Of a stretch of DNA of 64,000 bases, positions 4,199-33,244 are shown in pieces. The notes beneath the pieces are model-generated. The model was not told the DNA's origin. It searched no databases and saw nothing but the letters and a program-made list of their open reading frames with translations. A program made the translations under genes and the position numbers. Numbering within the stretch: position 1 is the stretch's first letter; the number at the start of each line of letters is the position of its first letter. Origin of the DNA: an uncultured Clostridia bacterium (GTDB lineage Bacteria; Bacillota; Clostridia; UMGS1883); the NCBI GenBank assembly GCA_947626145.1, contig CANQRB010000004.1, positions 29,250 to 93,249 on the forward strand, written 5' to 3'.

Positions 4199-4231
4199 TA
4201 GAAAATCGGCAGTAATAACTTTTCACACGAC

Positions 4232-4262
4232 AAAAACGGAACCTTTCGGTTCCGTTTTTGTT
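4232..4262 (+). terminator. Rho-independent terminator after the kinase-like gene
   Basis: aaaaacggaacc-tttc-ggttccgttttt: a perfect 10-bp stem followed by a T-run, 34 nt after the stop codon. Confidence 0.7.
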
Positions 4263-4532
4263 TGGCTCGGGCCGCCCTGTGGTCGAGGCAGGGCGGCCTT
4301 GTGCCTGTAATTTAAGGAAGAATTATAACCACGCTTTCTTTCAGCTCGGTTTTCCGGGCGGCAGCTTCCTCGCGCGCGCCGCCTTTTTTCTGTCCGGCTC
4401 CGCTGCAGACGGGCGGATCAGGGATGGCCTCGCCTTTGGAAAGCGGCGGTTAACTTGGGTCGGGGTGGCCGGTCTGTTGCGGCCACGGTGTGAGTGGAAT
4501 CAGTTTGCAAAAATCTGTTAACACAAAATAGT

Positions 4533-4706
4533 TTATTGTTTCTGCTTCCAAACCTTATAATCGTCAACAACAGATTTTGTATCTGTGATAACTTTTGCCC
4601 CGGTTATGCCTAAACTGGTCGCTTGGAACAGAACCCCGTCCATAACGGCCTTATCGGGAGACAGGTCTTTAATATCTATTGCGGGATTTTCAAATGCTTT
4701 TCTCAT
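4533..4706 (-). CDS. Small hypothetical protein (57 aa) directly downstream of the large surface-protein gene
   Basis: Not in the ORF track (<60 aa). ATG at 4706..4704 is preceded by GGAGG with a 9-nt spacer. Translation: MRKAFENPAIDIKDLSPDKAVMDGVLFQATSLGITGAKVITDTKSVVDDYKVWKQKQ. It begins 15 nt after the stop of the 1034-aa gene. Confidence 0.4.
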   Translation of the reverse strand: MRKAFENPAIDIKDLSPDKAVMDGVLFQATSLGITGAKVITDTKSVVDDYKVWKQKQ

Positions 4707-4720
4707 TTTAATCTACCTCC

Positions 4721-7700
4721 TTACAGCTCGGGAATGAAGTCGACTTCCGCACCAGCGGAATCAGCTTCGGTCTCGGCGATTTCGGTACTTACAAACTCAA
4801 TCTCAACACTGTCTAGGCTGAAGATCATAGCACCATCAACGCCTTCACAAGTAACATCATTGCCATTGATAGTTATCTTATAGAACAAGCCCTCAGTTTG
4901 AGTTGCTGTTTTATCTGTGCCGTTTACATCAACAATGGTAGATACCTTGAAGCCTATACCATTATCGTAAAGGGCTTTATCCAGTTCTATCGTTGTTCCT
5001 GCTTCACTGCTTGTAACTTTAATGAATTCTTTACGAACATCGTTAATAGCGTTCTTGTCATCAAGAACAACACCGCCGGTGCTGAGAATAGCAATGGCCT
5101 GTTCAAGCTTTTTTGCATCAAATTTTTCACGATTCAAAGTATCTTTGTAGTCGCTAAGGTTGGTTTTGATATCGTTAGCAAGCAACTCATAAAGAGATGC
5201 TTCAGCTTGAGCGATGAGATAACCGCTATTTGTGTCAACAAGCCTTGCCATATAGTAAATATTGCTTCCATTGTCTTTTTTCGGAATAACAAGTACAGAC
5301 GGAGCCCCGTTACTGAGGACAGAAGTGTCTATAGTCGTATTGTCTACTCCTTTACCGCCTTTTTCATTTGTTGTTTCGTGAAGATCAATAGCTGTAACCT
5401 TTAGCGTCTGTCCATCATAAGCACCATCGGCAGTAAAAGTTATGCCCAAAGTATCCGCACTGTCTCCATCAGCAGCAAAGCCAAGTCCAGCGGTGAGTGT
5501 AGCCGTCGCAGGAACGTCCACGCCACCTGCATATACGGCAAACTTGCTGATCTCAAGGTCTCCTTCACTTGAGGGATTGTTTCCAAAGAAGGAAACACCG
5601 TCAATTCCTCCATTGTTACGGAATGGTATGCCCATCAACATTTTACCTTCACCGGATGATTCATTCCGCACGGAAAGATTATATGTGTTATTTGTAACAT
5701 CAACATCTACGATAAAAGCATATGACTGATTAAGCTCCATTGTCATAAATTCTTTCTTGGCGGCGTTGTCTCTGTAGTAAATTTTGTCGCCACCGATAGG
5801 CAAATGAATACGAAGATTTGTGCCATACGCATCTGTCCCTTTTGCGTCGTACTTAAAAAATCCGATAGCGTTGTCGCCGTTTTGTTTGGCAACAAGAGTA
5901 AATGCGACGGTAAATTTGTCTGATATTTCTTTAGGGAAACGATACATTTCACTAAATGTCCTACCCTGATTGTTGATTACTGAGTTAGAACCAACGGTCA
6001 TGCCGGCTGTAGGATCAAATGTCTTTTCATGAGTCACAACATTTGCCGTCAAGGTAAGGCCTGTATCGGCGATAGTGCCGGTAGTATCCTCCCATGTTAC
6101 GGGCAATTCCTCGGCTGTCACTGCATCACTGTCAACAGTGGTCTTAATTGCGGTGGGAAGAACATAGTTATATCCTTCGAGAGTATTAATGTCAATGCTG
6201 TCGGGGCCGGTGATGGTGGCAGTTAACTCGGCCTCAACCTCAATTTCCTTAGTAGTGGTTGCGATAATAGTATCCTGATCAGACGCCTTATTGGTATAAT
6301 ATTTATCTGCTATGCGACGATTAGTAATAATCTTGCCATCACTGGCGGCACGGCCTTGATCAACGACCTGGTTTTCTGCAACTTTTACCGTTTCGCCTAC
6401 CTTGCCGGTCTGTTTCTCGATAGTGGCTACAGTTTGACCCTTGTATTTGGCATTTATGACGTAATCCACATCGTCGTTTTCAAGATTGCTAAGTTTGGTT
6501 ATTTTGAAGTTGTCGATGATGGGCTGAGTATCGTTACCGACCCAAGCGGTCTTAAAGCCCAGTTTTGTCTGCTTGGAACCGGTCCATACAATAAACTGCT
6601 TCGTCTCAAATTGATTGAGAGTGTGCAGGGTCATCTGCTGAAGCTTTTGGCTGGTATTGTCATTTTTGTCGGCATACCAATCAGCGCAGGGGTCGTCGGC
6701 CTCGCCGGTGCCATTGGCATCGGTTACGTAAAGCCACATATACTGATCCTTTGCCTGCTTGGTTGGCATGACGTCAAAGCTCACGAGATAACGGGTATTG
6801 GGGTCAACATTCCAAGTGCCGCCGAAAACAGTTCCGGCCGCACCGGCAACGCCCTTGAGCCAAAGAGCCTGGCTTCCTTCGGTCTTTTGGTTCTCACCCT
6901 TGACTATCTCATATTCTTCATTGGGTATATTAGTCCAACCATTAATACCATTTTCAAAGCCGTCGTTGGTGCCGGTAACAGTTCCCTCGACATTTTTTAC
7001 ATGTTTGGCGGTAATGTCGTAGTTGTTATTACCTTCACTCAAAGTGATCTCTTTGATTTCGGGGAGAGCAAGTTCATAAAGCTTTTCATTTTTAACAAGG
7101 TACTTGTTGCAACTGTTGAGAGAAAACTTATCTCCGGCAAAGTATTCCTTTTTATTTCCGTTTGGATTAGACTCCTCCAAAACATTTCCGCCGTCCATTA
7201 TGCGAACATTGACAGCAGCGTCGGGAGACAAAACCTTAACATCAGCAAGGTAAGCATCCTTAAGAGAAGCTACACCCCCAGTGGCATCTCCGCCGTGGAT
7301 ATTGGAGAGCAGAAAAGCGACCTTACCACCAACTATCTTATCGGCAGGAATACGGAGCTGAGACGTCACCTCAGTCCATGAATTAGATACATTTGATGTA
7401 CTCAGTGTTCCGACAAGAACTCTGCCCTCAACAGCAGTATCGAGCAGAGCGTTGTTCTCAGCTTCAACAGCTGCAGGGTCAACAGCAAAAATGGCAGCTT
7501 TAGATATACGGTCGTTAGCACCATTGTTAGACCATGCCTGAACCTTAAAGGTAGCCCGAAGAATTTGACCGGCAGCAACATTAGTGTCTTCTGGCAGTGT
7601 GAATTCAGCAAAACCCGCACGGTTATTTGAGAAAGACACTATGGCAGACTGAGCGTCTTGAACTTTGTATTCGTCAAATGTTTGCGGACGCTTAGCATCG

Positions 7701-7825
7701 GAATTAAAATTCCAACCATAAAGCTTATCTGCGGCGATATCTCCATCAGCCGCAAAAGCTACGGGCACTACTGTCAATACCATGGCCAAAACCACAGCCA
7801 ATGACAGAACTTTTTTGATTCTCAT
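4721..7825 (-). CDS. Large secreted multidomain protein (1034 aa) with CBM4/9-like and Ig-like modules; function unknown
   Basis: Signal peptide MRIKKVLSLAVVLAMVLTVVPVAFAADG. GGAGG RBS 8 nt upstream of the ATG. Internal stretch GFENGINGWTN...ALWLKG...RYLVSFDV looks like CBM_4_9, with beta-rich repeats elsewhere. Acidic C-terminus, no LPXTG or SLH motif. Lower GC than flanking DNA. Confidence 0.8.
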   Translation of the reverse strand: MRIKKVLSLAVVLAMVLTVVPVAFAADGDIAADKLYGWNFNSDAKRPQTFDEYKVQDAQSAIVSFSNNRAGFAEFTLPEDTNVAAGQILRATFKVQAWSNNGANDRISKAAIFAVDPAAVEAENNALLDTAVEGRVLVGTLSTSNVSNSWTEVTSQLRIPADKIVGGKVAFLLSNIHGGDATGGVASLKDAYLADVKVLSPDAAVNVRIMDGGNVLEESNPNGNKKEYFAGDKFSLNSCNKYLVKNEKLYELALPEIKEITLSEGNNNYDITAKHVKNVEGTVTGTNDGFENGINGWTNIPNEEYEIVKGENQKTEGSQALWLKGVAGAAGTVFGGTWNVDPNTRYLVSFDVMPTKQAKDQYMWLYVTDANGTGEADDPCADWYADKNDNTSQKLQQMTLHTLNQFETKQFIVWTGSKQTKLGFKTAWVGNDTQPIIDNFKITKLSNLENDDVDYVINAKYKGQTVATIEKQTGKVGETVKVAENQVVDQGRAASDGKIITNRRIADKYYTNKASDQDTIIATTTKEIEVEAELTATITGPDSIDINTLEGYNYVLPTAIKTTVDSDAVTAEELPVTWEDTTGTIADTGLTLTANVVTHEKTFDPTAGMTVGSNSVINNQGRTFSEMYRFPKEISDKFTVAFTLVAKQNGDNAIGFFKYDAKGTDAYGTNLRIHLPIGGDKIYYRDNAAKKEFMTMELNQSYAFIVDVDVTNNTYNLSVRNESSGEGKMLMGIPFRNNGGIDGVSFFGNNPSSEGDLEISKFAVYAGGVDVPATATLTAGLGFAADGDSADTLGITFTADGAYDGQTLKVTAIDLHETTNEKGGKGVDNTTIDTSVLSNGAPSVLVIPKKDNGSNIYYMARLVDTNSGYLIAQAEASLYELLANDIKTNLSDYKDTLNREKFDAKKLEQAIAILSTGGVVLDDKNAINDVRKEFIKVTSSEAGTTIELDKALYDNGIGFKVSTIVDVNGTDKTATQTEGLFYKITINGNDVTCEGVDGAMIFSLDSVEIEFVSTEIAETEADSAGAEVDFIPEL

Positions 7826-8052: not shown

Positions 8053-8059
8053 TAGATTA

Positions 8060-8471: not shown

Positions 8472-9041
8472 TTGAGCGGATTGGCGGCGGAGCACGAGGA
8501 ACTTAAATGGATAAGGAAAATCAAGCTGTTCGGTTCAAAAAAAGACGCCGACAGTCTGGTTCGGTCTTATTACGATGAGATTTACAGATATGTATCCCGA
8601 CAGCTTCCCGACAGCGGGGACGCCTGGGATCTTACTCAGGAAATCTTTATATCCATGCTGCGCTCCATAAAGTCGTACAAAAAAGAACGGTCGTCCTTCC
8701 GCACATGGCTGTACCGCATCGCCACAAACAAAATTATAGACTGCCGCCGGAAAAAGGTTCCGACGACTGCCGCGCCCGACGAAGTCAATACAGCCGACGA
8801 TGCCGATTTTATAAGTCAAATCGCCCAGGCCGAGCTGCTGAAAAAAATCGAGGGCTATGTCAACCGCTTTTCGCCCGCCGTGCAGCAGATATACAGACTG
8901 CACATTTACGGGGATTTTACCTTCGCAAGCATCGCTTCAGCCCTGGACATCCCTGAGGCCACCGTAAAATCCCACTATTACAGATTGCAGAAAAAAATAA
9001 GAGAGGAGTTTGGCGATGAGTACAGAGACGTTGTCGAATGA
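8472..9041 (+). CDS. ECF-family RNA polymerase sigma factor (sigma-70 region 2/4)
   Basis: TTG start with GGAAGGAGG RBS. Region 2 DLTQEIFISMLRSIKSYK..FRTWLYRIATNKIID and region 4 HTH EATVKSHYYRLQKKIREEF. 189 aa. Confidence 0.85.
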   Translation: MSGLAAEHEELKWIRKIKLFGSKKDADSLVRSYYDEIYRYVSRQLPDSGDAWDLTQEIFISMLRSIKSYKKERSSFRTWLYRIATNKIIDCRRKKVPTTAAPDEVNTADDADFISQIAQAELLKKIEGYVNRFSPAVQQIYRLHIYGDFTFASIASALDIPEATVKSHYYRLQKKIREEFGDEYRDVVE

Positions 9042-9759
9042 CGAAAAGGATATTGCCATAAAAAAAATTTTGGACGCGGGCGTCGTTACCCCTTGGGACA
9101 GGGTGAAAAAAAACTTGCTGGCGCTCCGTTTCTGCGCGCCGAAGCACATATTTTTCGACATGGGCGACTGCCTGTTTTTGGGACTGCTGGCGGCAGCGGC
9201 AGGTTGGATATTGCTTTTGAATATAAACGGCGGCTTTGTCTGCTGTTCCCTGCTGCTCGCCTCCCCTTTTGCATATATGATAACCTGCCTTCTGACGGCG
9301 TGGAAGGAGCGTCAACGGCGGATGTATGAAATAAAAATGACCTGCTATTTTAATCTGCATCAGGTGACGGCCCTCCGGATGCTGTATTTCAGCGGCCTTA
9401 ATTTAATTGTAAATTTTGTCATGATTCTGCTCGAACGCCGAATTTCTATTTTGGGAGCTTTGTTCTGGCGGCTTTTGGGCATTTCCTTTTCCGGCATATT
9501 TATTTACGGAGTTTTGCTAATAGCTTTCCAAATAAAAGTCCATGGCAGAATGTCCGTTATCTTACCGCCTGTTTTTTGGCTGATGATAAACAGCGTGATA
9601 TTCATTGTATGGAACGAAAGAATAGAATTTATAATATTAAATTTATCCGTTTATATAGTATATCTTGTGACGGCGGGACTGCTCATGCTGTATATTGCGA
9701 TGCTATACACCTATATGACGAATTGGAGAGGAGAAACAGACTATGCTTTCAGTGAATAA
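9016..9759 (+). CDS. Polytopic membrane protein co-transcribed with the ECF sigma (candidate anti-sigma/sensor)
   Basis: ATG at 9016 with GAGAGGAG RBS (the track start 9010 is TTG). ~70-aa soluble N-terminus followed by ~6 TM helices. Overlaps the sigma gene's 3' end. Confidence 0.6.
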   Translation: MSTETLSNDEKDIAIKKILDAGVVTPWDRVKKNLLALRFCAPKHIFFDMGDCLFLGLLAAAAGWILLLNINGGFVCCSLLLASPFAYMITCLLTAWKERQRRMYEIKMTCYFNLHQVTALRMLYFSGLNLIVNFVMILLERRISILGALFWRLLGISFSGIFIYGVLLIAFQIKVHGRMSVILPPVFWLMINSVIFIVWNERIEFIILNLSVYIVYLVTAGLLMLYIAMLYTYMTNWRGETDYAFSE

Positions 9760-10600
9760 CGTCACAAAAAAATACGGTGATTTCACTGCGCTTCAAGACA
9801 TAAACATTGAGTTTGACCGAGGAGTTTACGGACTGCTGGCGCCCAACGGAGCCGGAAAAACCACTCTGATGAAAATGCTGGCCACCCTTTCCTTCCCAAC
9901 AAAGGGGGAGATTTTGTGGAACGGCACGGATATATTTCAACTGGACGAGGAATACCGTGATATTCTGGGCTTTTTGCCGCAGAAGTTCGGCTATTACAGG
10001 AATTATTCCCCGCGCAGGTTCTTGGGCTACATGGCGGCGTTAAAAGGCATAGAAAAAAACGGGGCGGAGGAAAAAATCGACTCACTTCTTAAAAAGGTCT
10101 TTCTCGAAGAATTTGCGGATAAAAAAATGAAGCAGTTTTCAGGGGGTATGCTCCAACGGGTAGGCATCGCTCAGGCTCTGCTCAACGACCCCGAGCTGCT
10201 TATTCTGGACGAGCCCACCGCCGGACTTGACCCAAAGGAGCGGGTTCGCTTTCGCTCCATGCTCCACTCTTTGGCCGGTGAACGCATAGTTATTCTGTCA
10301 ACTCATATCGTTTCCGACATTGAAACAATAGCTGATAAAATAATTTTGCTTAAGGATCATAAACTGCTTTGCTGTGCCGCGCCCACAAGGCTGTGCTCCG
10401 CGTTGCAGGGCAAAATTTTTGAGATACCCGCCGACAGGCATATTGACGCGCCCTGTGAAATTCTGTATGAGCGCCAGACCGGAACAGGGACCGTCCTGCG
10501 TATTTACAGCGAGTCACGCCCTGACGGAGCAACGGAAACGGCCGCGAACCTTGAGGACGTGTTCCTGACGGTTTACCGTGACGAAAGGAGACAAAAATGA
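9743..10600 (+). CDS. ABC transporter ATP-binding protein
   Basis: Walker A LLAPNGAGKTT, ABC signature FSGGMLQRVGIAQAL, Walker B LLILDEPTAGLD. GGAGAGGAG RBS. Confidence 0.9.
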   Translation: MLSVNNVTKKYGDFTALQDINIEFDRGVYGLLAPNGAGKTTLMKMLATLSFPTKGEILWNGTDIFQLDEEYRDILGFLPQKFGYYRNYSPRRFLGYMAALKGIEKNGAEEKIDSLLKKVFLEEFADKKMKQFSGGMLQRVGIAQALLNDPELLILDEPTAGLDPKERVRFRSMLHSLAGERIVILSTHIVSDIETIADKIILLKDHKLLCCAAPTRLCSALQGKIFEIPADRHIDAPCEILYERQTGTGTVLRIYSESRPDGATETAANLEDVFLTVYRDERRQK

Positions 10601-11751
10601 AACTGATAAAATCGGAAATTAAGAAGCTTGTATTTAACAAAAGCCTGTATTTTTTTCTGGCCATTTGCCTGACGTTAAATCTTGCGCTGATCGCTGTGAC
10701 GGGCGGCGAACGTTCTTATATAAAATATATTGGAGAAATCACGGCGAACGCCGGAGACAGGATCAACCGTTCTTTTCTTAATTATGTCAGCGCTTTGCCG
10801 GACAGCGAGTTCATCGACCGCCTCACAGCCGCCTGTGCCGGTGCGGGAAAAATCTTCGACAGCTTTGACGCGGCGGCATTGGGCAGAAACTGGTATTATG
10901 ATGAATACTATATAAAGTCCTCTTTCCTTCATAGAATGTTATATGAGAAATACGAAAAATTAAACAATTCAGTGAAATTGCTGAATTCCGAAAACGCCGA
11001 TCTGTCCGTTTACGGGGCCGACGCCACGGGGAATTTCCATGAGGCTCTGTTTACATATACACTCAAAGCGCTGATGATAGAGGGATTTATACTTATTTCT
11101 CTCCTTACGATCCACATAATGGGCATTGAACGTCAAAGCCTTACCGAGTCCATAATATATTCCAGCCGAAGAGGTCGGGCCCTTGTCAAAGACAAAATGT
11201 GCGCCGCCTGGATAGTGAATACCGGCTGCATCTTGCTGCTGTACGGGTCAACGCTGGCGTTTTTCTTTTCGGTATGGGATATCGGCGGCCTTTGGGAAGC
11301 CAACGTGTCAAGCTGCTTCCACCTTGTGACGGACGTTGATCTGCCGTTTCTGAAGCCTTTCCTCACTTGGACAAGCTTCACGGTAAGAGAGTATTTCACC
11401 GCGACTCTGCTTTTGGAAGCCGCATTGCTGTTGGTGTGGCAGCTCATATCCTCCTGCATCGGAATTTTGTGCGGCAGTTCCGCCAAAGGATTTCTGACGG
11501 CGGCGGCCTGCCTTACGGGTCCGTATTTTCTGCCGTTTGTTTTTAAATCGCTGAGCTGTGGGTGGTCATTTTATATTAACACCTTTTCCATCTCAATGTT
11601 AACGCTTAATCAGCATTTGTGGTTTACGGACATGGGTGTTTACGAGCTGCTGCCGTGGCAGGAAACCTTGTCGGCCGGAATACATTTATCCGTGTGTGTT
11701 CCGCTCTTTTTTACGGCAATTAAAATATTCAAAAGAAGGGAGCTGATGTAA
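10597..11751 (+). CDS. Polytopic membrane protein (ABC-2-type permease-like), function unknown
   Basis: 384 aa with multiple TM segments. Its start overlaps the ATPase stop (ATGA). Confidence 0.6.
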   Translation: MKLIKSEIKKLVFNKSLYFFLAICLTLNLALIAVTGGERSYIKYIGEITANAGDRINRSFLNYVSALPDSEFIDRLTAACAGAGKIFDSFDAAALGRNWYYDEYYIKSSFLHRMLYEKYEKLNNSVKLLNSENADLSVYGADATGNFHEALFTYTLKALMIEGFILISLLTIHIMGIERQSLTESIIYSSRRGRALVKDKMCAAWIVNTGCILLLYGSTLAFFFSVWDIGGLWEANVSSCFHLVTDVDLPFLKPFLTWTSFTVREYFTATLLLEAALLLVWQLISSCIGILCGSSAKGFLTAAACLTGPYFLPFVFKSLSCGWSFYINTFSISMLTLNQHLWFTDMGVYELLPWQETLSAGIHLSVCVPLFFTAIKIFKRRELM

Positions 11752-12933
11752 ATGTTTGTCTGGGAGCTCAGAAAAGTTTGGACAAAGGAGCATATCTTAC
11801 TCATCGCCGCGGTCACGCTTCTTTTTTCTCTGACCTTTCTTGTACCGCCAATAAGGTCGGTGACTGTGACAGAAGAGGGCGAGGAAATCTTCTCCGCGAG
11901 GATGGGGATAATCAAGGAGTGGCTCAATAAATATGACACACAAATTACGCCTCAGGAATTTGAAGAGATAAAAAGGATCTATGATGAACGCCTTTCCGAC
12001 GGACAGGCTGTCATTTCAACGCAGCCCTATTTCGCGGAGAATAATGTGTTTACTTATGACGACTATCTTTCTTACGGTAATAACGCCCTGAACGGCGCGG
12101 AAGGCTACTCCTACGACAGCTTCCGCAAAATGCGTGAGTTCATATCCGAAGGCACCGATTATTCCGCCATGTATTATCAGGAGTATGAAGATCTCATACA
12201 TAAATATGTTGACGGCAGCTCGCGAAAAGCTCGTTATATTGAAACGCTCCTGTCCGGCAAAGCCGAAAAGGCCGCAATATCCGAGCTCGACACGCTTCGC
12301 CGAACCAAAGGCGTCGGCAGTCTGCTGCCCGGCGAACTTGTGTACGCCGCAAACCGTTACTATGTCAACCTCTCAATTTTGCTCATTATATTGGCGATGT
12401 TCATTTCCGGGCCTGTCATGGTCAACGATAATGCCAATAACATTCGGCCGGGGCAATACAGCAGCAAAATCGGTCTCAAAATATATCAGCGTCAGTATGC
12501 GGCCATGGCGGTTTCTCTTTCCGCACTTACGGCACTCATGCTCATCGGCAGCTTGACGCTTTGGCTTGCAGTCGGGGCCGGCCGCTTTTTCCAATGCGGC
12601 ATCTTTGCTTTTCAAATGATGGAAACGCCGGTGACGGGCGATCTATCGTTTGGCGTGTATTTGGTTTTGATTTCGGCGCTGATTTTTATTCTTGTAAACG
12701 GTGTTGGCGGGCTTATGTTTTATCTTTCCGGCACGAGCCGCAATTTTATCGAGATGCTGATGAAATCGATACCCGCCGCGGTTTTTGGGATAATGCTGTC
12801 GCTTTCTTTAAATGACCTGTTTCTCAATACAAACTTTCTTTTCCGTATGACAGGGATAAGAGGTGTGGAGATTTTTCCGGTTATTTTGATTTTCATATTT
12901 GGATTATTGATAAATTTAAAAGGGATACGTTAG
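11752..12933 (+). CDS. Polytopic membrane protein with a large extracytoplasmic loop, function unknown
   Basis: 393 aa. N-terminal TM, a ~180-aa soluble loop, then 5-6 C-terminal TM helices. Starts 1 nt after the previous stop. Confidence 0.6.
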   Translation: MFVWELRKVWTKEHILLIAAVTLLFSLTFLVPPIRSVTVTEEGEEIFSARMGIIKEWLNKYDTQITPQEFEEIKRIYDERLSDGQAVISTQPYFAENNVFTYDDYLSYGNNALNGAEGYSYDSFRKMREFISEGTDYSAMYYQEYEDLIHKYVDGSSRKARYIETLLSGKAEKAAISELDTLRRTKGVGSLLPGELVYAANRYYVNLSILLIILAMFISGPVMVNDNANNIRPGQYSSKIGLKIYQRQYAAMAVSLSALTALMLIGSLTLWLAVGAGRFFQCGIFAFQMMETPVTGDLSFGVYLVLISALIFILVNGVGGLMFYLSGTSRNFIEMLMKSIPAAVFGIMLSLSLNDLFLNTNFLFRMTGIRGVEIFPVILIFIFGLLINLKGIR

Positions 12934-21340: not shown

Positions 21341-21538
21341 TCGTGAAACTTCCTTTCTTTTGTTGTTATTTTAATCACTAAATTGCTTTTGCCAATCTAT
21401 ACACGAAATCAATTATATTGCGCCTAAAAACTTTGTATATCGGTGTTTCGGGCAATAGGGGTAACCATTAACGGACGCCGCGTCATCTCGTATTTAATCG
21501 CAAGTTTTCCTCGATCAAAGAGAAACGTAATTGCCTTT

Positions 21539-21988: not shown

Positions 21989-22039
21989 AGGTCATTGCTC
22001 CTTTTCTTTTATTTTGGGCTTTTTCAGCCTTTTTTATAG

Positions 22040-22330: not shown

Positions 22331-22368
22331 TGTTGGATTGATACCGTCTCTGCCGCTTCTCACAAATC

Positions 22369-22403
22369 ATGATAGCAGAGAAATCTAAACTGAAACGAAA
22401 CTG
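22369..22403 (-). promoter_or_regulatory. Conserved promoter module, copy 1 (TTTCAGTTTAGATT box + TGC-TATCAT)
   Basis: Minus-sense GTTTCGTTTCAGTTTAGATTTCTCTGCTATCATGA. It lies upstream of the scar and of the 21988/21340 genes. Confidence 0.55.
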
Positions 22404-22414
22404 TCTTTTTTCTT

Positions 22415-22987: not shown

Positions 22988-23005
22988 TGAATATCCTCCC
23001 TTAAT

Positions 23006-23851: not shown

Positions 23852-23917
23852 TTTAATCCCTCCCTGTTTCTTATGTTGTATATAGTCTTCTTCACCCATT
23901 CACAAATCCTACCATTT

Positions 23918-24625: not shown

Positions 24626-24692
24626 TCTGATCTTCCTTTCCAAAAAACAAAGCTTGTTGGATCAATACCGGCTCTGCCGCTTTTCGCAGGTA

Positions 24693-24724
24693 ATGATAGC
24701 AGAGAAAACTAAACTGAAACAAAA
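24693..24724 (-). promoter_or_regulatory. Conserved promoter module, copy 2 (upstream of the SAS-GT8-pgsA operon)
   Basis: Minus-sense GTTTTGTTTCAGTTTAGTTTTCTCTGCTATCATTA. The -10 is ~70 nt from the start codon. Confidence 0.55.
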
Positions 24725-24818
24725 CAACGACGGACCCTTCGAAAAAGAAGAATCCGTCTGACCGCTTTACGGCGGAAGTAATAAACTAATTTTATAACCA
24801 TTTCGCAAGTTGACTGTA

Positions 24819-26588
24819 TCAAGCTGCAAGGCAGCGAGCGTTGGCGCTGGATTGCTCCAGCCGGTCAGATGCTGCTTTGATTGCAGCCATCTCACTTTCA
24901 GTTACGGTTTCCGGTTTATATTTGCCAAGCAACTTTCGTAATGCAGAACAGTCTTCTTTAATCTGCTTTTTTTCTTCTTTTTCAAGCTGCTTCCCAACTT
25001 TGTGCAATGCCTGTTCAGCTTCTGATAATACCTTCCCTGCGCGATTAACCATTTCTAAAGAGTTACGGCGAACACCATCCTGTGCCGCATACTGTTCCGC
25101 ATCGCGAATCGCCTGTTCAATCTCCGCATCGGACATTTTATCATTGTTCGAAATGGTAATAGACTGTGCTTTCCCCGTATCCAAATCTCTTGCGGACACT
25201 TTTAAAATTCCATTGGCATCAATGTCGAAAGTAACTTCAATCTGCGGCACTCCTGCGGGGGCTTTCTTAATTCCGTTAAGTTTGAATTTGCCGATGGTCT
25301 TATTATCGCGTGCCATTGGCCGTTCTCCTTGTAGAACATGAATTTCCACACTGCTTTGAAACGGTGCCGCGGTTGAAAAAATCTGTGAATAGTGAATGGG
25401 CAAAGTGGAATTTCTCTCCACAAGACGTGTTGCGACACCGCCTACTGTTTCAATAGAAAGGCTGAGAGGGGTAACATCCAAAAGAAGGATACCGTTTTCC
25501 GAACCGGCAATCTGCAGCGAACCGCCAGAAAGCGTGTCTCCCTGAATGGCGGCGCCCTGAGCAACACACTCATCCGGATTGATATTCTTTGACGGTATAA
25601 TACCGGTCAATTGACGCACTTTTTCCTGAACAGCGGGAATACGGGTTGCGCCTCCGACAAGGATGACCTTGCCAAGTTCGGATGGCGCAATACCAGCATC
25701 ATTCAAGGCGTTCTGTACCGGAATTGCTGTTCGATCCACAAGATCGCGGGTCAGCTCGTTGAATTTGGCACGGGTGAGGATAGTATCAAAGTGTATTATG
25801 CCGTCCTTTTCCTGGGCCAGGTACGGCAGGCTTATCATAGCGTTCTCTGAGCCGGACAGTTCCTTTTTTGCCTGTTCAGCCGCTTCACGCACACGCTGCA
25901 ATGCTACATAATCTTTTTTTACATCTGTATGATACTGCCTCTGAATTTCCGAAATCAAATACTCAGTGATACGCTCATCAAAGTCATCGCCGCCCAAATG
26001 GTTATCACCATTTGTTGCCAGAACTTCTATAACGCCGTCTCCAATCTCAATGATGGAAACATCAAAAGTACCGCCGCCAAGGTCATATACCATGACCTTT
26101 TGCTGTGTTCCGTTATCCAGCCCGTAAGCAAGCGCGGCGCTGGTTGGCTCATTAATAATCCGTTTTACATTTAAGCCTGCAATTCGCCCGGCATCTTTTG
26201 TGGCCTGTCGCTGAATATCGTTAAAATAAGCGGGTACAGTGATGACCGCGTCCGTCACTTCCTCTCCAAGAAAGGCTTCTGCATCCTTGCGCAGTTTTCG
26301 TAGAATCATTGCACTGATCTCCTGCGGCGTAAATCTTTTACCGTCAATATTGATAGTCCAATCCGTCCCCATGTGACGTTTCACAGACGAAACGGTTCGG
26401 GACGCATTAGTAACCGCCTGTCGTCTTGCCGTTTCACCCACTAACCGTTCACCGGATGCGGTAAAAGCAACAATGCTGGGAGTGGTTCTTCCGCCTTGTT
26501 CGCTTGGAATGATAACGGGTTTGCCGCCCTCTACAAAAGCGACGCAGCTATTCGTTGTTCCAAGATCAATACCGATTGTTTTTCCCAC
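24819..26588 (-). CDS. Hsp70-family chaperone paralog (DnaK-like, not in a canonical hrcA-grpE-dnaK-dnaJ context)
   Basis: Probable GTG start at [14 protein letters not shown] (GGAAAGGATGG RBS). Complete actin-like NBD ([24 protein letters not shown]) and substrate-binding domain. Neither grpE nor a full dnaJ is adjacent. Confidence 0.85.
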
Positions 26589-26605
26589 AGTAATTCCATC
26601 CTTTC

Positions 26606-27406
26606 CTACATACATCTAAGGCAGCCAAATGGGCCGCATAGGAATTGCATGGCTAAAAAGCCAAAACATATTTTTTGTATATTAGTGGCTTCCATATCGA
26701 AGCCTTTTGCATTTTGTTCATAGGTTTGCTCTGAACGGCGAAATTTTTGCAAAAGCAGATGATAGGTGCGATTATTCGGCTCCATTTGTGATGCTCTCTG
26801 CATATGGTCGATTGCCTGAACGGTGTTACCAAGACCATGATTGGCAAGAGCGCTTAAATAATACCACCTTGCACCTCGTCCTACGCTCGGTATACGGGTC
26901 AAAATCCAAATTGCCTCTTGATAGCGATGGTTATTGATTTCAGTAATGGCCTGCCTGATTTCCATATTGTCGCCCGGCTCAGGCTGCGGATTCATAAAAA
27001 CGGCATCATCATTGCCGTTCCGTTCAAATCCAAATCCAAAAATATTCCCAAAGTCAAAGCCGCCAAAATCGCTCGACCAGCCACCCGGACCTCGATAACC
27101 GCCAGAGCCGCCCTGCCTTTCATATCCGGTTCCACTATAACCGCCGTTTTGATTTTCCGTATATCCCCCATATTGCCTACTCTGTCCGTAAGATTGGCGC
27201 TGCTGTGCTCGCCTTGCCTCATACTTCTGCGGATTCATCAACATATCGTAGGCTTCATTCACCGCATTCATTTTTTGGCTCGCGGTCGGATCATCGGGAT
27301 GCAAGTCAGGATGATATTGCTTTGCCTTTTGACGATATGCTTTTTTTATTTCTTCTTTAGTCGCTCCTTTAGGAACGCCCAGAGTTTGATAAGGGTCATT
27401 GACCAT
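26606..27406 (-). CDS. J-domain protein (DnaJ N-terminal domain only) with a Gly/Tyr-rich linker and a helical C-terminal domain
   Basis: YQTLGV...[15 protein letters not shown] contains the HPD motif. It lacks the CxxCxGxG zinc-finger and the client-binding domains of true DnaJ. Confidence 0.8.
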
Positions 27407-27409
27407 GGC

Positions 27410-28228
27410 TCACTTTTTCCTTTCCGTCTGCATTTGCCGGTTATATTTGATCCAAACGCCAGAATAAAGAATGTTCCTTAAAATGTGGGCGTCCTGGACA
27501 AGCGGCAGCGATTCAAAGGCTTCAGCAGCTTCTCCGAGAATGGTCTTCAGCATGGAGCGGATTTCTTCCTGACTCAGAGTGACAGAAGAAAAAGGATTAT
27601 AACTTCCTTTTTTCTGGTCATGCCTTAAATCAATCGCGGCATCGGCAAGATAGATATACTTTCCGATATGATAACCAAACTTCTGCAAACGCGGCATCCA
27701 GTGATCCGGCTCAACCACAAAAATCGTTGACATCAATCTGCCAAAGCTGTTGGCTGCCGCATCTGGAGAGGCGAAGCAGGATTTCTCAATTTCAGAGATT
27801 TCATTTATTTCCTTTTCGATGATCGAACACTGATCTTTTCTTGCTGCTCTGACTTCTTCATAAGCCTTTTTAAGCAGAGTGGCATAGCACTTGTGGGAGA
27901 TATTTCGATCATCGTTCCAGTCGTCAAGACATTTGAAGTATGTCAAGGCTATTGTCATATCGGCGGCATAGTCTATATATTTACCGGACAGATAATTATG
28001 TTTCTTGCATGGATGCACGGCACATCGCACCGCTTTGCTGGTTTCCTCCGGTTCATACAAGGATGATAAAAACATAGCCAAGAATGTCAGATCGTATGTC
28101 AGTCCCAATCGCGACCTAAATCCATACCTTTCCCCCAACGCATGACACAATCCGCAATAAAAGGCACGATACCGTTCTTTTTCTTCATCAGTAAGACCGG
28201 ATAAATTGGCCTGTATGATTCCAAACAT
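27410..28228 (-). CDS. Uncharacterized Cys-rich cytoplasmic protein co-operonic with the J-domain/Hsp70 pair
   Basis: 272 aa; N-terminus MFGIIQANLSGLTDEEKERYRAFYCGLCHALGERYGF. From memory it resembles DUF5685-type proteins that accompany Hsp70/J pairs in Clostridia; this is not verified here. Confidence 0.6.
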   Translation of the reverse strand: MFGIIQANLSGLTDEEKERYRAFYCGLCHALGERYGFRSRLGLTYDLTFLAMFLSSLYEPEETSKAVRCAVHPCKKHNYLSGKYIDYAADMTIALTYFKCLDDWNDDRNISHKCYATLLKKAYEEVRAARKDQCSIIEKEINEISEIEKSCFASPDAAANSFGRLMSTIFVVEPDHWMPRLQKFGYHIGKYIYLADAAIDLRHDQKKGSYNPFSSVTLSQEEIRSMLKTILGEAAEAFESLPLVQDAHILRNILYSGVWIKYNRQMQTERKK

Positions 28229-28237
28229 AGTGCCACC

Positions 28238-28648
28238 TCATGTTTTGCGGGTTATTTTGCCTTTACATACCGGACAAGTGATTTCAATTTGCCCTTTTCC
28301 TTTCGGAACTCGTAGCCAACTTTTGCAGTTCGGACATTTATAATACCGATGCGTCTTTCGATCTCGCCACATATTTTTCCGACGTTTGAAACTCTGCTTC
28401 ACTTTGTCTGTATATTTCAAGAAAGTTTCCCGCTCCTTCTGTCGTTTTTCAAGATTGCGGGAAAAGCTGCGAAACATCGACCAAATCAACAGAATCATCG
28501 CAATCGGATATAGCAGAGGGACGAGCGGGGAAATGAGTACGAAAACCAGCACCGCAATCAATAGAAATTTGGAAAGCTCGTCATAGCCGTATCTTCCGTA
28601 CATCCATGCCTGCATTTTTTCTCCGAGCCTTTGCAACCATCGTTTCAT
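28238..28648 (-). CDS. Small membrane protein with a C-terminal zinc ribbon
   Basis: 136 aa; one or two TM helices, then CPNC...CPVC near the C-terminus. First gene after promoter module copy 3. Confidence 0.65.
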   Translation of the reverse strand: MKRWLQRLGEKMQAWMYGRYGYDELSKFLLIAVLVFVLISPLVPLLYPIAMILLIWSMFRSFSRNLEKRQKERETFLKYTDKVKQSFKRRKNMWRDRKTHRYYKCPNCKSWLRVPKGKGQIEITCPVCKGKITRKT

Positions 28649-28688
28649 TTTCCGTTTCTCCTTTATCGGCTTACTCTTTTTACACCAA

Positions 28689-28722
28689 ATTTTACAGCAA
28701 GAATCTAAACTGAAACGAAACT
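28689..28722 (-). promoter_or_regulatory. Conserved promoter module, copy 3 (upstream of the zinc-ribbon/DUF/J-domain/Hsp70 operon)
   Basis: Minus-sense GTTTCGTTTCAGTTTAGATTCTTGCTGTAAAATTT. The -10 TAAAAT is ~40 nt from the ATG. Confidence 0.55.
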
Positions 28723-28928
28723 AAGGAAGAGCTTTCTTCCAGACTATTTTTTCGGTAAGTTCAGTTCTGATAGATTTACTGAATAGCCGCAGAAGTCATA
28801 GACCTACATAAAAAAGAACCTCCACAACGAAGGCTCTCACGGTAAATCTCATATTGGAAGCGGCAGTATGCCTCACAGCACACTGCCACTTTACGCTTCT
28901 CATGCTTAATTAAATGTCCCGCACTATT

Positions 28929-29714
28929 TTATCCAATGCCTCTGAAAGCATTAACGGAAAGAATCGCCACGCCTAAAACCGTCAGCACCACACCAACAGC
29001 CCTGTTGAGCGTTTTGGCGCTGGCCTTGTTTGCGAACAATGCGGCGATCCTTGCCCACAACAGAGTAAACGCCACGCAGAGAGCGAGACACCATAGGTCG
29101 GGCATATCGCCAATGGCAAAATGACTGACGGCGCCGGTCAGCGCGGTAAAGGTCATAATAAAGACACTGGTACCCACAGCGGTTTTTAATTCATATCCCA
29201 AAATGCTGGTCAACAGAAGCAGCATCATCATTCCACCGCCTGCGCCCACAAAACCACAAATGAAGCCGACGACCATTCCGCAGACAATCGACTGAATCGT
29301 CCGCTTTTTTGCGCTTACGACAGCCATCGCCTCCTTTGTGGTCATGACAGGTTTTACAATAAATTTGATGCCCAAAAGCATCGTCATGAAGACGGAGAAG
29401 CTGCCCATAGTGGCGTTGGAGACCAGACTGGCTACCCAACTGCCTACTAAGGTGAAAAGCAAGACGGCCACCATCATAACAAGCCCGTTGCGAATGTCGA
29501 TGTTTTTGTTTTTTCCATAGGTATAGGCGCTGACCGCACTTGCCAGCACGTCACTTGCCAGAGCGATGCCTACCGCTTCATAAGCCGGCATACCCATAAA
29601 TGTGATCAGCATTGGGCTGATGACTGCGGCGGCGCTCATTCCGGCAAAACCGGTTCCCAAACCCGCTCCGATACCTGCTATAAAACAAACTAAAACTTTT
29701 ACCCACAGATTCAT
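28929..29714 (-). CDS. TauE/SafE-family (sulfite exporter-like) membrane protein
   Basis: Start at MNLWVKVLVCFIAGIGAGLGTGFAGMSAAAV with GGAGAAAAA RBS. Two repeated 4-TM halves with G-rich motifs, typical of TauE. The track's 5' extension is rejected. Confidence 0.75.
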   Translation of the reverse strand: MNLWVKVLVCFIAGIGAGLGTGFAGMSAAAVISPMLITFMGMPAYEAVGIALASDVLASAVSAYTYGKNKNIDIRNGLVMMVAVLLFTLVGSWVASLVSNATMGSFSVFMTMLLGIKFIVKPVMTTKEAMAVVSAKKRTIQSIVCGMVVGFICGFVGAGGGMMMLLLLTSILGYELKTAVGTSVFIMTFTALTGAVSHFAIGDMPDLWCLALCVAFTLLWARIAALFANKASAKTLNRAVGVVLTVLGVAILSVNAFRGIG

Positions 29715-29845
29715 TTTGCGTTTTTCTCCATATATTTTTTTATATTCTTTTCCACCCGCGTTATGTAGGACTGAAACTGCCGCTGACCTCTTTGTCAAGA
29801 TCGTCTGCGATGATATCCGCAAAATCGAAGCACTCTGATAAAAAA

Positions 29846-30940
29846 TCAGTTTTTCTGGCTTTCTTCTTCTGCATTTAGCTTTGATTTCGGCAATGTAACC
29901 GTAAACATGGTAAGATTGTTTTCGCTTTGAACCGAAACCGTTCCGTTGTGCAATTCCACCACTTTTTTGACAATTGCAAGCCCGATTCCGTTTCCCTCAC
30001 CGGAGTGTGAACTGTCAGCCTGATAAAATTTCTGAAAGATTCGTGATATACTTTCCGCAGGAATTTCCTCTCCCGAATTGATGATATCCACGGACAGGGA
30101 AGACGGTTGATTTTTAATATTGACTTCAATGACTCCTCCAGCGGGAGAAAATTTGATCGCGTTATCCAGCAGATTGATCCACACCTGTTTCAAAAGCTCC
30201 TCATTGGCAGAAATCCTGTATTCACCGAAATCCACTTTAAAGTCCAGTTGCTTTTTTTCCCACTTGTCGGCAAGCAACAGGATGGAAGACCGGATTTGTT
30301 CTGAAAGGTTAAACTTTACAACATCCGTTAAAATCGTTTGATTTTCTACCCGCGTCAGATTCAACACGTTTGTCGCCATATCAGAAAGCCGCAGAGATTC
30401 TTCTTCGATAACCGCCAAATATTCCCCTTTTTGTTCTTCTGTCAGGTTGCCTCGGCGAAGCAGCTTTGCAAAGCCGGCAATAGATACGATGGGCGTTTTG
30501 AATTCATGCGAAAAATTATTTACAAAATCCCCACGAAGCATCTCTGTATTTTTGAGTTCAGAAGCCATTCGATTGAAGCTGTGCGAAAGCTGCGAAAAAG
30601 TAGGATGTTTGGATATGGGCCATCCGAAATCCAATCGGGCACTGAAATCACCGGATGCCAGCCGATCGATTTGATAAATTACATTCCGCAGGGGGCGGGC
30701 GGATATTTTACTGGATAAATAGGCAACAATGACACCGACAATATTACTGATGACGATCATGTAGAGGATGATAATACCGATGTTTGATCGGATATCGGTA
30801 TCAAGCGTGACAACTTGAAAATGTACCAGCATATAAATAATAGAAGCGGTTATTGAAGTAATAATAAATTGAATGAAAAAAATAAGTGTCGATATTAAAA
30901 ACGTGAGCGCAAAATAATGTTTTCGATTTTGTTTGTTCAT
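29846..30940 (-). CDS. Sensor histidine kinase (two N-terminal TM helices, HisKA, HATPase_c)
   Basis: H-box FSHEFKTPIVSIAGF, N-box LLDNAIKFSPAGG, G-boxes GEGNGIGLAIVKK. Overlaps the regulator gene stop. Confidence 0.9.
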   Translation of the reverse strand: MNKQNRKHYFALTFLISTLIFFIQFIITSITASIIYMLVHFQVVTLDTDIRSNIGIIILYMIVISNIVGVIVAYLSSKISARPLRNVIYQIDRLASGDFSARLDFGWPISKHPTFSQLSHSFNRMASELKNTEMLRGDFVNNFSHEFKTPIVSIAGFAKLLRRGNLTEEQKGEYLAVIEEESLRLSDMATNVLNLTRVENQTILTDVVKFNLSEQIRSSILLLADKWEKKQLDFKVDFGEYRISANEELLKQVWINLLDNAIKFSPAGGVIEVNIKNQPSSLSVDIINSGEEIPAESISRIFQKFYQADSSHSGEGNGIGLAIVKKVVELHNGTVSVQSENNLTMFTVTLPKSKLNAEEESQKN

Positions 30941-31611
30941 ACTTTTTTCACCGCCTTATATCCGAGCCCGCGCACGGATTCGATATCAAATTCTTCCCAA
31001 CCCTCGAACCGTTTGCGGAGCCTGCCGATGTGAACCGTCACAGTTTCCCACCCGGTATCGCTCTCAGCGCCCCAGATTTCATCCATCAGTTGAATCCGTG
31101 TAAAAATCTTTCCGGGGTATGACAGCAATTTATAAAGTAACAAAAATTCCTTTTGCGGGAGTTCTTGTGTCTCGCCGTTTTTGGTCACGGTAAAGGAATC
31201 GTAATCCAAAATTACATTTCCAATCGTCATTTTACGTTCGTTGGCAATTTGAGCGCGGCGTAGAAGTGCTTTGATTCGCCAGAGCATTTCTTCCTCATCA
31301 ATCGGTTTTGTCATGTAGTCGTCAATCCCTAATGAAAAACCTTTATGTTTATCTTCGGGGAGCTGTTTTGCCGAAACCATAAGAATGGGAAGATTGTTCT
31401 TGCTTTCGCGGAGGATTTTTGTAAATTCATATCCGTCCATTTTCGGCATCATTATGTCGAGAATCACAAGGTCAATATACTCTTTATCCATTACATCGAG
31501 GGCGTCTTCACCGTTTTCCGCAGTAAATACAGAATAGTGCTCCGTTTCAAGCACGGCTTTGAGCAGCCGGCGTGTATTTTTATCGTCGTCTACAACAAGA
31601 ATTTGGAACAT
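30937..31611 (-). CDS. OmpR-family response regulator
   Basis: Receiver domain VVDDDKN...DLVILDIMMPKMDG plus a winged-helix C-terminus (GYEFTK...RGLGYKAV). Confidence 0.9.
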   Translation of the reverse strand: MFQILVVDDDKNTRRLLKAVLETEHYSVFTAENGEDALDVMDKEYIDLVILDIMMPKMDGYEFTKILRESKNNLPILMVSAKQLPEDKHKGFSLGIDDYMTKPIDEEEMLWRIKALLRRAQIANERKMTIGNVILDYDSFTVTKNGETQELPQKEFLLLYKLLSYPGKIFTRIQLMDEIWGAESDTGWETVTVHIGRLRKRFEGWEEFDIESVRGLGYKAVKKV

Positions 31612-31675: not shown

Positions 31676-32096
31676 TGTGCGAGTTTAATCCCCAAAATTT
31701 ATTATTTCGTTCAGCAGGCTTTTTCGCGTCTTTGAGCAACAGCCACATCTTTCCCATTTTATCGACTCCTGCAATACGTCCGGCAAAACAGTAATAATTT
31801 AATCATGCGGGGAGAGATACCCCATTTTTCGCTGCCTATTTGAACGTCATGTAATTAAAATATCGCACCTCCACATATAAAATTATATTTCGTTATCTTG
31901 AAGAAAGCAAGTGCATTTGATGAACATTAGATGAATTATTTACCCTCGCTACTGAAACTGTAAAGACATATCCAAATAAAGAAAGGGACTGTAAAATGGA
32001 TCAATTTCAATAAAGCGGACAGAAAAACATAAGATGGCAGGAAATTATGTAAAATATTCAATATCCATATTTCTCATAAAGTATATCACATAAAAA

Positions 32097-32318: not shown

Positions 32319-32472
32319 GGACCGCCTCCTATTAATTTATTGTTTGTATTATTCCATAATATAACCGTATGCCCTTTGCGGGGCGTATATAATCTACTGA
32401 TTATGACTATTATATCACATTTTTGTGATTTAGAATAGTATTAATAGAAATTATTTTTAGAAGGTTATCTTT

Positions 32473-32787: not shown

Positions 32788-32837
32788 TGTCATAACAAGA
32801 CAGAGACCGGTCGATGAGCTTTTTTCGACATTGCTAA

Positions 32838-32871
32838 AAAACCTGCATACATTTCTGTGTGCAGGTTTTTC
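32838..32871 (+). terminator. Rho-independent terminator after the XRE gene
   Basis: aaaaacctgcatac-atttctgt-gtgcaggttttt. Confidence 0.6.
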
Positions 32872-32879
32872 AAATATAA

Positions 32880-32995
32880 AAATCTAACGATTACTCAATA
32901 ATCCAACGATTACCCCAAAAAACTAACGATTTCCCATAAAACCAACGATTTCCCATAAATCCAACGATTTCCCATAAATCCAACGATTACACGGC
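32880..32995. repeat. Iteron-like tandem array: six copies of a 19-20-bp unit (consensus tCCAACGATTtcCCATAAA)
   Basis: AACGATT cores at 32886, 32905, 32925, 32944, 32963 and 32982. The last three units are near-identical. There are no spacers, so it is not a CRISPR array. It lies between the XRE terminator and tRNA-Ser. Confidence 0.7.
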
Positions 32996-33153
32996 GGCGA
33001 GTTAGGATGGATAATTTCCGAAAAGCAAAAACTGCATTTATTGCCTCCGTAAGGTGCGGAAAAATTATGCCGACCATACAAAAAAGCCGATAATATCGGC
33101 TTTTTTGCACAAAGAAAGAACCTTGACTTTGTATCAAAATCAAGGTTCTTATT

Positions 33154-33244
33154 TGGCGGAGAGAAAGGGATTCGAACCCTTGATCGGGGTTAACCGATAC
33201 ACGATTTCCAGTCGTGCGCCTTAGACCAGCTCAGCCATCTCTCC
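33154..33244 (-). tRNA. tRNA-Ser (anticodon GGA)
   Basis: Minus-strand GGAGAGATGGCTGAGCTGGTCTAAGGCGCACGACTGGAAATCGTG...long variable arm...GGGTTCGAATCCCTTTCTCTCCGCCA. 7-bp acceptor stem, CTGGAAA anticodon loop, class II variable arm, encoded CCA. Confidence 0.85.

Follow-up and report, generated by a model that had tools for sequence, protein, structure and literature searches.

A low-GC mosaic island next to tRNA-Ser in an uncultured gut Clostridia bacterium probably holds the remains of a Tn1549/CTn5-type conjugative element

Introduction

Integrative and conjugative elements (ICEs) of the Tn1549 family are modular, often use large serine recombinases and carry variable accessory modules alongside modules for recombination and conjugation (PMC3158075, PMC3383454). 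They are bounded by repeats of 2–15 bp and insert in genes or intergenic sites, not tRNAs (PMC3158075, PMC3383454), and their serine-recombinase family uses short non-tRNA targets (PMC3158075). Here we analyze 64,000 nt of an uncultured gut Oscillospiraceae(-like) bacterium (GenBank assembly GCA_947626145.1, contig CANQRB010000004.1, positions 29,250–93,249; hereafter the window), in which a low-GC island separates a kinase gene from tRNA-Ser(GGA). An earlier note on this DNA had proposed that the island entered through an integrase acting at the 3' end of the tRNA gene. Our analysis suggests a different history. The island (4498–33153) is probably a composite of horizontally acquired blocks fixed at a synteny breakpoint, with its right half representing a dead Tn1549/CTn5-type ICE whose cargo is a regulon.

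The closest known systems are the serine-recombinase members of the Tn1549 family, such as CTn2, CTn5 and Tn6103 of C. difficile and the elements of Monoglobus pectinilyticus (NZ_OY725736) and Vescimonas fastidiosa (NZ_AP023416). The island resembles these ICEs in the colinear arrangement of serine recombinase, (TnpW), helix–turn–helix (HTH) protein, sigma-70-like protein, Cys-rich KTR protein, accessory slot, small HTH protein and Xre regulator, with backbone relics that match at 73–76% DNA identity. As in Tn1549, where the vanRS-vanYWHBX cluster fills the slot, a two-component system (TCS) and its target operons occupy this place. But what survives in the window is limited to the accessory module and remnants of the modules for regulation and recombination. 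TnpW, MobC, oriT and type IV secretion system (T4SS) genes are missing, as is the relaxase as far as Pfam scans tell, and both element ends appear to be lost; the recombinase lacks its catalytic domain; and the cargo (Hsp70/J/DUF5685, RelQ-like, GT8, CDP-OH transferase, TauE) contains no resistance operon.

Two other kinds of element invite comparison. Tn5397 and Tn916 have a regulatory region in which orf7 is sigma-like, orf8 encodes an HTH protein and orf9 an Xre regulator, and TndX is a serine recombinase. In general layout, the island is like them in having sigma-like and small HTH genes beside a terminal large serine recombinase and an Xre-type regulator across the accessory gene, whereas its cargo slot is much larger and conjugation genes are absent. 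Islands and prophages that use a tyrosine integrase and an attachment (att) site in tRNA-Ser share with it an adjoining tRNA 3' end, low GC, mosaic structure and a toxin–antitoxin module. Unlike them, the island has no integrase or relic of one, no direct repeat and no precise presence/absence junction, and the 270 bp nearest the tRNA are common to a sister species.

Results

Composition and limits of the island

We ran entropy segmentation and a sliding GC profile over the window. Segmentation yielded 1–4497 (GC 0.576), 4498–31574 (0.435), 31575–33420 (0.359) and 33421–64000 (0.571). Overall, GC is 0.431 in the low-GC region (4498–33153), compared to 0.576 and 0.571 in the flanks. For 1-kb windows, the corresponding values are 0.432 ± 0.042 (n = 28) for the island and 0.571 ± 0.044 (n = 34) for the flanks (Mann–Whitney p = 3e-10). 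GC at third codon positions (GC3) lies at 0.34–0.61 across all island genes, versus 0.67–0.78 in secA, prfB, gtrA, the AAA_18 kinase gene, the C26 peptidase gene and the aro genes. Tetranucleotide-usage deviation, compared with that of the core, gave r = 0.49–0.64 for seven of the eight island blocks and 0.87–0.95 for core blocks; the exception is the block that holds an extracytoplasmic function sigma factor/ATP-binding cassette (ECF/ABC) operon (r = 0.84). Thus, the GC drop previously placed at ~4.2–33.2 kb is real, with segmentation, 1-kb windows, GC3 and tetranucleotides in agreement, and the region diverges from its flanks throughout, the ECF/ABC block being excepted for tetranucleotides.

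The last gene ahead of the island encodes an AAA_18/uridine-kinase-like protein (3614..4198, plus strand) and is core-like (GC3 0.73). It is followed by a GC-rich, non-coding stretch (4199..4497) with a bidirectional terminator hairpin at ~4232–4262 and additional perfect hairpins. Folding of this stretch is strong, with z = -4.5 and -5.9 for the two strands. No Rfam family was detected in 4150–4750, and in tblastx and blastn comparisons of 4199–4530 with all fetched loci, the sole match was a conspecific contig. The GC change point at 4497/4498 is very sharp. Because 4199–4497 is compositionally core, the left limit falls at 4498; the GC-rich, non-coding, hairpinned character previously described for this boundary holds, whereas a start at 4230 does not.

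Relics of an ICE in the right half

Blastn of 18260–20720 gave 73–76% matches to clostridial elements (Monoglobus, Vescimonas, Subdoligranulum). The genes annotated beneath these matches encode the recombinase, TnpW, an HTH protein, a sigma-70-like protein and a Cys-rich KTR protein. By tblastn, a large serine recombinase pseudogene was evident at 19194..19689 (minus strand), covering residues 141–327 of 558 in three frames, with two frameshifts. It lacks the catalytic N-terminus as well as the C-terminus, so it shows ancestry rather than membership of a functional ICE. Fragments of the ICE regulatory pair lie nearby on the same strand: residues 48–79 of the 79-residue HTH protein (19961 to 19871) and residues 41–84 of the 142-residue sigma-70-like protein (20075 to 19944). 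Next comes an intact Cys-rich KTR gene (20367..20516, minus strand; PF14205, E = 8e-24), which forms the left edge of an accessory slot.

The other side of the slot has its own relics. A small-HTH pseudogene with two in-frame stops (31698..31859, minus strand) matches the 61-aa 'DNA-binding protein' of Tn1549 (pMG2200), with 46% identity over 54 aa (E = 2e-12). Then follow a 73-aa open reading frame (ORF) of no family (32097–32318, minus strand) and an intact Xre/HTH_3 regulator gene (32500–32787, plus strand), the last ICE-like gene. In Tn1549, the small HTH gene sits between the vanS-vanR cargo, which it directly adjoins, and Xre-MobC-relaxase, and the Vescimonas element runs sigma, KTR, cargo (ABC transporter, MerR), small HTH, Xre, MobC. 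In the window, the sigma relic and KTR are followed by 11 kb of genes on the minus strand, the last of them for a histidine kinase and a response regulator, and then by the small-HTH relic, the 73-aa ORF and Xre. Hence the regulatory pair and the KTR, small HTH and Xre genes that bracket the slot keep the order seen in Tn1549 and in the elements of Vescimonas and Monoglobus, KTR and Xre being intact and the rest fragments.

Beyond Xre, we detected no match to MobC (the sole mobilization gene used as a tblastn query) and no similarity to the oriT region that lies between Xre and mobC. Relaxase and MobC domains were not met in Pfam scans of the island ORFs, the relaxase having been covered by these scans and not by tblastn, and T4SS genes were lacking among the ORFs of 4.5–33.2 kb. 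Because the order of the relics and their matches agree with the reference elements and with Tn1549, ~19.2–32.8 kb appears to be what is left of a Tn1549/CTn5-type ICE, namely its accessory module together with pieces of those for regulation and recombination. An ICE of this type is the sole recognizable mobile element in the island.

The putative cargo regulon

The cargo block (20717..31611) spans ~11 kb between KTR and the small-HTH/Xre relics, with all genes on the minus strand. Its genes encode DUF1269, a 149-aa protein (21539–21988), a CDP-alcohol phosphatidyltransferase, a GT8 protein, a RelA/SpoT-type small alarmone synthetase, Hsp70, a J-domain protein, DUF5685, a 136-aa protein and TauE, followed by the TCS, which consists of a HAMP histidine kinase (29846–30940, minus strand) and an OmpR-type response regulator (30937–31611, minus strand). 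Ahead of four co-oriented minus-strand transcription units, that of the response regulator and histidine kinase included, lies a ~34-nt motif with core AATCTAAACTGAAA, at 22371–22404, 24695–24728, 28691–28724 and 31645–31678. Similarity can extend beyond the motif, with 86% identity across 77 nt between 22325–22401 and 24649–24725. Given its repetition, the motif is probably where the OmpR-type regulator binds, and the regulator would then act on all four copies.

An operon encoding the 136-aa protein, DUF5685, the J-domain protein and Hsp70 occupies 24819–28648. Pusillibacter faecalis (L197, 8586–10508) has a distant (33%) DUF5685/J-domain pair after an RseC-family gene, amid the core genes cdaA, gmk, rpoZ and priA. 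That pair is housekeeping, which makes the set in the island an additional, paralogous copy. DUF5685 seems to be a conserved partner of J-proteins. Also within the cargo, the junction between the end of the GT8 gene and the start of the CDP-OH transferase gene is duplicated (22169–22257 versus 22905–23053, as 58-nt and 29-nt segments of 91% and 83% identity). The duplicate, 3' of the CDP-OH transferase gene, resembles a fragment of a pseudogene or an incomplete duplication.

Parts of the cargo recur in other genomes. Clusters at 90% identity contain 59 members for the response regulator and 21 for the DUF5685 protein. At the end of a 43%-GC contig (L101), the response regulator–histidine kinase pair is present at 89% DNA identity, TauE and the 136-aa gene at 84%, and the alarmone synthetase gene at 84%, with other genes interspersed. 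A second contig (L102) has a 43–52%-GC patch in 56–59%-GC flanks, with the same pair at 91%, TauE/136-aa/DUF5685 at 87% and the 149-aa gene at 90%. The module is thus 84–91% identical to these copies, versus 79–83% for housekeeping genes of the sister species. No ICE genes were found near the TCS module in either contig, both contexts having been read. These data suggest that the TCS module is a recurring low-GC unit in several chromosomal contexts. Genomic GC itself varies widely within this clade: a relative with PrfB at 87% identity and the secA-prfB-gtrA order (L195, Logan SRR30592907) has ~43% GC across 13.6 kb, compared to ~57% in the window core. Low-GC donors therefore exist within the clade.

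The tRNA-Ser gene and its surroundings

ARAGORN and Rfam placed a tRNA-Ser(GGA) gene with encoded CCA at 33154..33244 (minus strand), its 3' end toward the island as previously described; in the whole window, Rfam found only this tRNA. Past the 3' end are a hairpin at 33117–33149, directly adjacent, and a bidirectional terminator hairpin at 33079–33107, both of which are kept in the sister species. Between these terminators and Xre are six tandem 19–20-bp repeats (32875..32990) with core YAACGATTWCCC. The 19-bp unit gave no match in IMG/VR.

A contig from the sister metagenome-assembled genome (MAG) CANQKL (GCA_947624455; contig L099, PheA 92%, coding DNA 79%) was informative here. Its gene order is aroC-pheA-C26-tRNA-Ser, then repeats. 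The match to the window runs at 88% identity from 33301 through the tRNA to the end of the contig, at 32885, and takes in both hairpins and repeats. Its own 19-bp array (reverse complement, about 2830–3080) has one unit fewer. L099 and an independent contig, L004, both terminate within 19-bp repeats. The 270 bp past the tRNA 3' end (33153 to 32885) are thus 88% identical in the sister species, versus 79% for the coding flanks. Foreign DNA does not start exactly at the tRNA 3' end, as L099 is homologous to 32885 and ICE-like sequence stops at ~32787. Judging from this alignment, the tRNA-Ser gene, its terminators and the 19-bp repeats appear to be older than the split from the sister species.

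We searched for a second copy of the 26-nt tRNA 3' end with up to 3 mismatches and found none. Looser matches (16 nt with 2 mismatches, 18 with 3, 20 with 4, in both orientations) were likewise absent from 1–33100, so the degenerate 15–20-nt copy that the earlier note proposed to look for at the far boundary is not there. No significant repeat links 4150–4750 with 32750–33300, chance matches of ≤10 nt aside. The lack of a direct repeat and of an intact integrase, both noted before, is therefore borne out by exact and degenerate searches for the former and by Pfam scans and tblastn for the latter. Pfam scans of candidate ORFs revealed no tyrosine integrase, nor did tblastn reveal a relic in the window (best E = 0.17) when the queries were six integrases of viral contigs linked to tRNA-Ser, four lying beside this 3' end with no tRNA gene and two beside a whole tRNA-Ser.

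The same 26-nt 3' end occurs exactly in eight IMG/VR contigs. Five of these have no tRNA gene, and four of the five carry the 26-mer within ~200 bp of a tyrosine integrase of 366–370 aa. Two other contigs have a whole tRNA-Ser beside an integrase, and L110 has the tRNA and a partial repeat 9.4 kb off. No match was found between the viral att-int regions and the sequence past the tRNA. The tRNA-facing geometry is thus real, and the same 3' end appears to serve as an att sequence in IMG/VR phages. For the island, tRNA-Ser is a neighbor, not a demonstrated integration site.

Flanks in relatives

On the left, sister MAG CANRHW (GCA_947630525; contig L194, PrfB 95%, DNA 83%) and the more distant L195 run secA-prfB-gtrA-carD-ispD-ispF. 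Homology to the window ends at 3610, just ahead of the kinase gene, and carD and ispDF are not in the window. In CANRHW, the genes after the kinase homologue (70%) are PadR, an FtsW-like gene and ComEC. A scan of genome contigs with the kinase returned 80 loci, all with ≤70% identity, the closest (L006, L012) being in unrelated contexts. In nine MAGs of one other genus (80–90% mutual identity), the kinase gene lies 3.4–5.5 kb from pheA-aroC-aroA-aroB, with spoIIR, a GHMP kinase gene, aroE and aroQ in between. This hints, for one independent lineage only, that the kinase gene and aro operon were once close, with low-GC DNA now between them. The giant protein 5' of the kinase in L006 and that 5' of aroB in L091/L094 were considered as a possible match and rejected, there being no similarity between them.

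On the right, relatives with PheA at 71–81% identity carry differing genes after pheA. In L098 (PheA 95%), C26 is followed by a 193-aa gene and groES-groEL, with no tRNA. The 193-aa gene was considered as a kinase orthologue and rejected for want of similarity. Scanning metagenome contigs with C26 gave relatives of ≤58% identity only, with no synteny. Island ORFs of at least 100 aa had no homologue beside the kinase in 13 kinase-linked relative loci (tblastn, E ≤ 1e-8), and no island genes were called in relative loci centered on pheA or prfB. An empty site was not recovered via kinase, PheA or PrfB, because the two flanks are not adjacent in the sister species. From these gene orders, the locus appears to be a rearrangement (synteny) breakpoint whose flanks are not neighbors there.

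The sister MAG CANQKL breaks at the equivalents of both island boundaries. Its kinase contig (L006) ends 43 nt past the kinase stop codon, and L099 ends in repeats past tRNA-Ser. Such breaks would be expected had assembly or binning lost an atypical or repeated segment between them.

Junctions in independent assemblies

Metagenome contigs from different samples cross both junctions: L001 covers 766–6562 at 99.97% identity (left) and L002 covers 29439–38778 at 99.95% (right). L004 extends to 32881, ending inside the 19-bp repeats. The junctions are no assembly artifact, because independent contigs from other samples span both.

A Logan contig (L003, ERR10663698) is 100% identical to the window from 34983 to 33153 and stops one base past the tRNA 3' end. 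This end could be a graph branch from strain heterogeneity at the tRNA boundary, or merely low coverage.

Discussion

We consider it probable that the island is a composite, and we infer that the regulon arrived as ICE cargo. The right 13.6 kb would have come in as a serine-recombinase ICE carrying the two-component regulon. Deletions would then have taken the conjugation and mobilization module (oriT, MobC, relaxase, T4SS) and both element ends, so that the element could neither excise nor transfer, and point mutations would have killed the remaining backbone genes, leaving the cargo fixed in the chromosome. The left 14 kb, heterogeneous in composition, would represent separate acquisitions. 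A region that is compositionally foreign, mosaic, marked by mobile-element relics and fixed, as described earlier, is what we see. Several points weigh against the composite. As no empty site was recovered, the case for acquisition is built on composition and relics instead of presence/absence. Xre95 is only weakly like the ICE Xre (28% over 50 aa, E = 0.008), and none of the reference elements has an equivalent of the 73-aa ORF. Alternatively, the TCS module could be bracketed by chance by relics of two separate elements, one having left KTR and the other the small HTH gene. As ICE genes are missing around the module in L101 and L102, it may move or persist by other means. No vehicle was seen for the arrival of the left 14 kb, and the ECF/ABC block has a host-like tetranucleotide signature.

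Integration at tRNA-Ser by a tyrosine integrase, of one island or several in tandem, with the integrase and distal att repeat later lost, would explain why the tRNA 3' end points into the island, and phages evidently use this end: the exact 26-mer is found in eight IMG/VR contigs, four of them with a tyrosine integrase beside it and no tRNA gene, and L110 has a partial repeat. The six 19-bp repeats by the tRNA could be arm-type sites from such an element. Yet no repeat of the 3' end turned up even at 20 nt with 4 mismatches, no tyrosine-integrase remnant was found anywhere in the window, and the sequence past the tRNA has no match to viral att-int regions. The 270 bp beyond the tRNA, terminators included, are closer to the sister species than the coding flanks are, and the recombinase relic is of serine type, 13.5 kb from the tRNA. 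Entry of the island by this route, as proposed in the earlier note, is accordingly disfavored, and we regard it as unlikely. An older tRNA-directed event is conceivable, because IMG/VR contigs carry the same 26-nt 3' end by tyrosine integrases; that such an event left only the 19-bp array behind seems to us a long shot. More generally, that a tRNA adjoins a low-GC island does not count as evidence for integration at that tRNA; a reading that was plausible but untested is thereby corrected. The one vehicle that can be identified is an ICE with a serine recombinase, of the type that does not target tRNAs.

Might the region instead be an ancestral low-GC accessory region of the lineage, with surface and stress genes, into which ICE fragments came as a small later insertion? 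In L102, from another high-GC genome, the TCS module likewise forms a low-GC patch, among different neighbors and with no ICE genes. The ECF/ABC block looks host-like in tetranucleotides, all conspecific contigs have the same junctions, and some Oscillospiraceae, Pusillibacter for one, have RseC-like/DUF5685/J-domain triads as housekeeping genes. But GC3 in the island is under that of every flanking gene, by 0.2–0.4, and tetranucleotide usage departs from the core in all blocks but one. The ICE relics flank the TCS regulon instead of lying within it, and the module is closer to copies elsewhere than housekeeping flanks are to those of the sister species. Moreover, homologues of island ORFs were seen beside the kinase in 0 of 13 relative loci, and none were called at the pheA and prfB loci. 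An ancestral origin thus appears very unlikely. A chimera, in which assembly or binning joined low-GC DNA of another organism to a high-GC contig, might be suspected from the source, a metagenome-assembled contig of 191 kb, and from the very sharp GC step at 4498. Contigs of different samples and assemblers cross the left (L001) and right (L002, with L004 reaching 32881) junctions, however, and this explanation is effectively refuted.

A broader version of the composite is a tentative possibility, somewhat doubtful as it stands. Here the cargo would be a self-contained mobile stress regulon, found across high- and low-GC Oscillospiraceae, that happened to be the payload of a dead ICE, and the 19-bp array, as arm sites or iterons, would mark a further integrative element. 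The OmpR/HAMP TCS would drive four motif-marked operons, encoding an extra Hsp70/J-domain/DUF5685/RseC-like set, a small alarmone synthetase, envelope-lipid and sugar transferases, and TauE. A TCS-controlled Hsp70/J/DUF5685 and alarmone-synthetase module that occurs in several contexts may merit its own study.

As predicted from its genes, the island would contribute surface functions and proteolysis, an exporter under ECF control, an addiction module, and a response in proteostasis, alarmone and envelope functions that a sensor controls. In Clostridia, decayed ICEs and mosaic islands are frequently found, and this one is otherwise ordinary. It suggests that decay of an ICE can fix a cargo regulon in the chromosome of a gut commensal.

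Other features of the window

Pfam scans of the ORFs agree with the island gene content listed in the earlier note. The left half (4.5–18.3 kb) begins with a 57-aa ORF (4533–4706, minus strand) and a 1034-aa secreted surface protein (4721–7825, minus strand; GC3 0.42) with no Pfam family at cut-off. The ECF/ABC operon (8472..12933, plus strand; GC3 0.54–0.61) encodes an ECF sigma factor (8472–9041), a putative anti-sigma factor (9010–9759), an ABC ATPase (9743–10600) and two permease-like proteins (10597–12933). Downstream, a ParE toxin (13093–13419, minus strand) is paired with a Phd/YefM antitoxin (13397–13714, minus strand), with GC of 0.37 over the pair. A 1443-aa surface M4 (thermolysin-type) metalloprotease, anchored by S-layer homology (SLH) domains and bearing Listeria-Bacteroides repeats (13928..18259, minus strand), has the lowest GC3 of the window, 0.34. 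No mobility relics were found in the left half, and plasmid and phage searches with the left half, cargo and tRNA-proximal segment gave generic domain matches only, ICE relics aside. The surface protein and an ABC permease of the left half fall in 90%-identity clusters of 1–2 members, smaller than those of the two cargo proteins. The left half probably consists of accessory genes acquired separately from the right half, and its ECF/ABC operon may be older or native.

Several features lie in the rest of the window. Eight 33-nt tandem repeats lie within a 907-aa ORF (59557–59910). A 253-nt tandem duplication (79%) is present at 53164–53669, and a pair of 72-nt repeats (93%), 189 bp apart, in a low-GC intergenic patch at 62489–62749. 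The high-GC core encodes a second TCS (49976–52244), with a response regulator 42% identical to VanR-B and a kinase 30% identical to VanS-B, closer in both cases than the island TCS.

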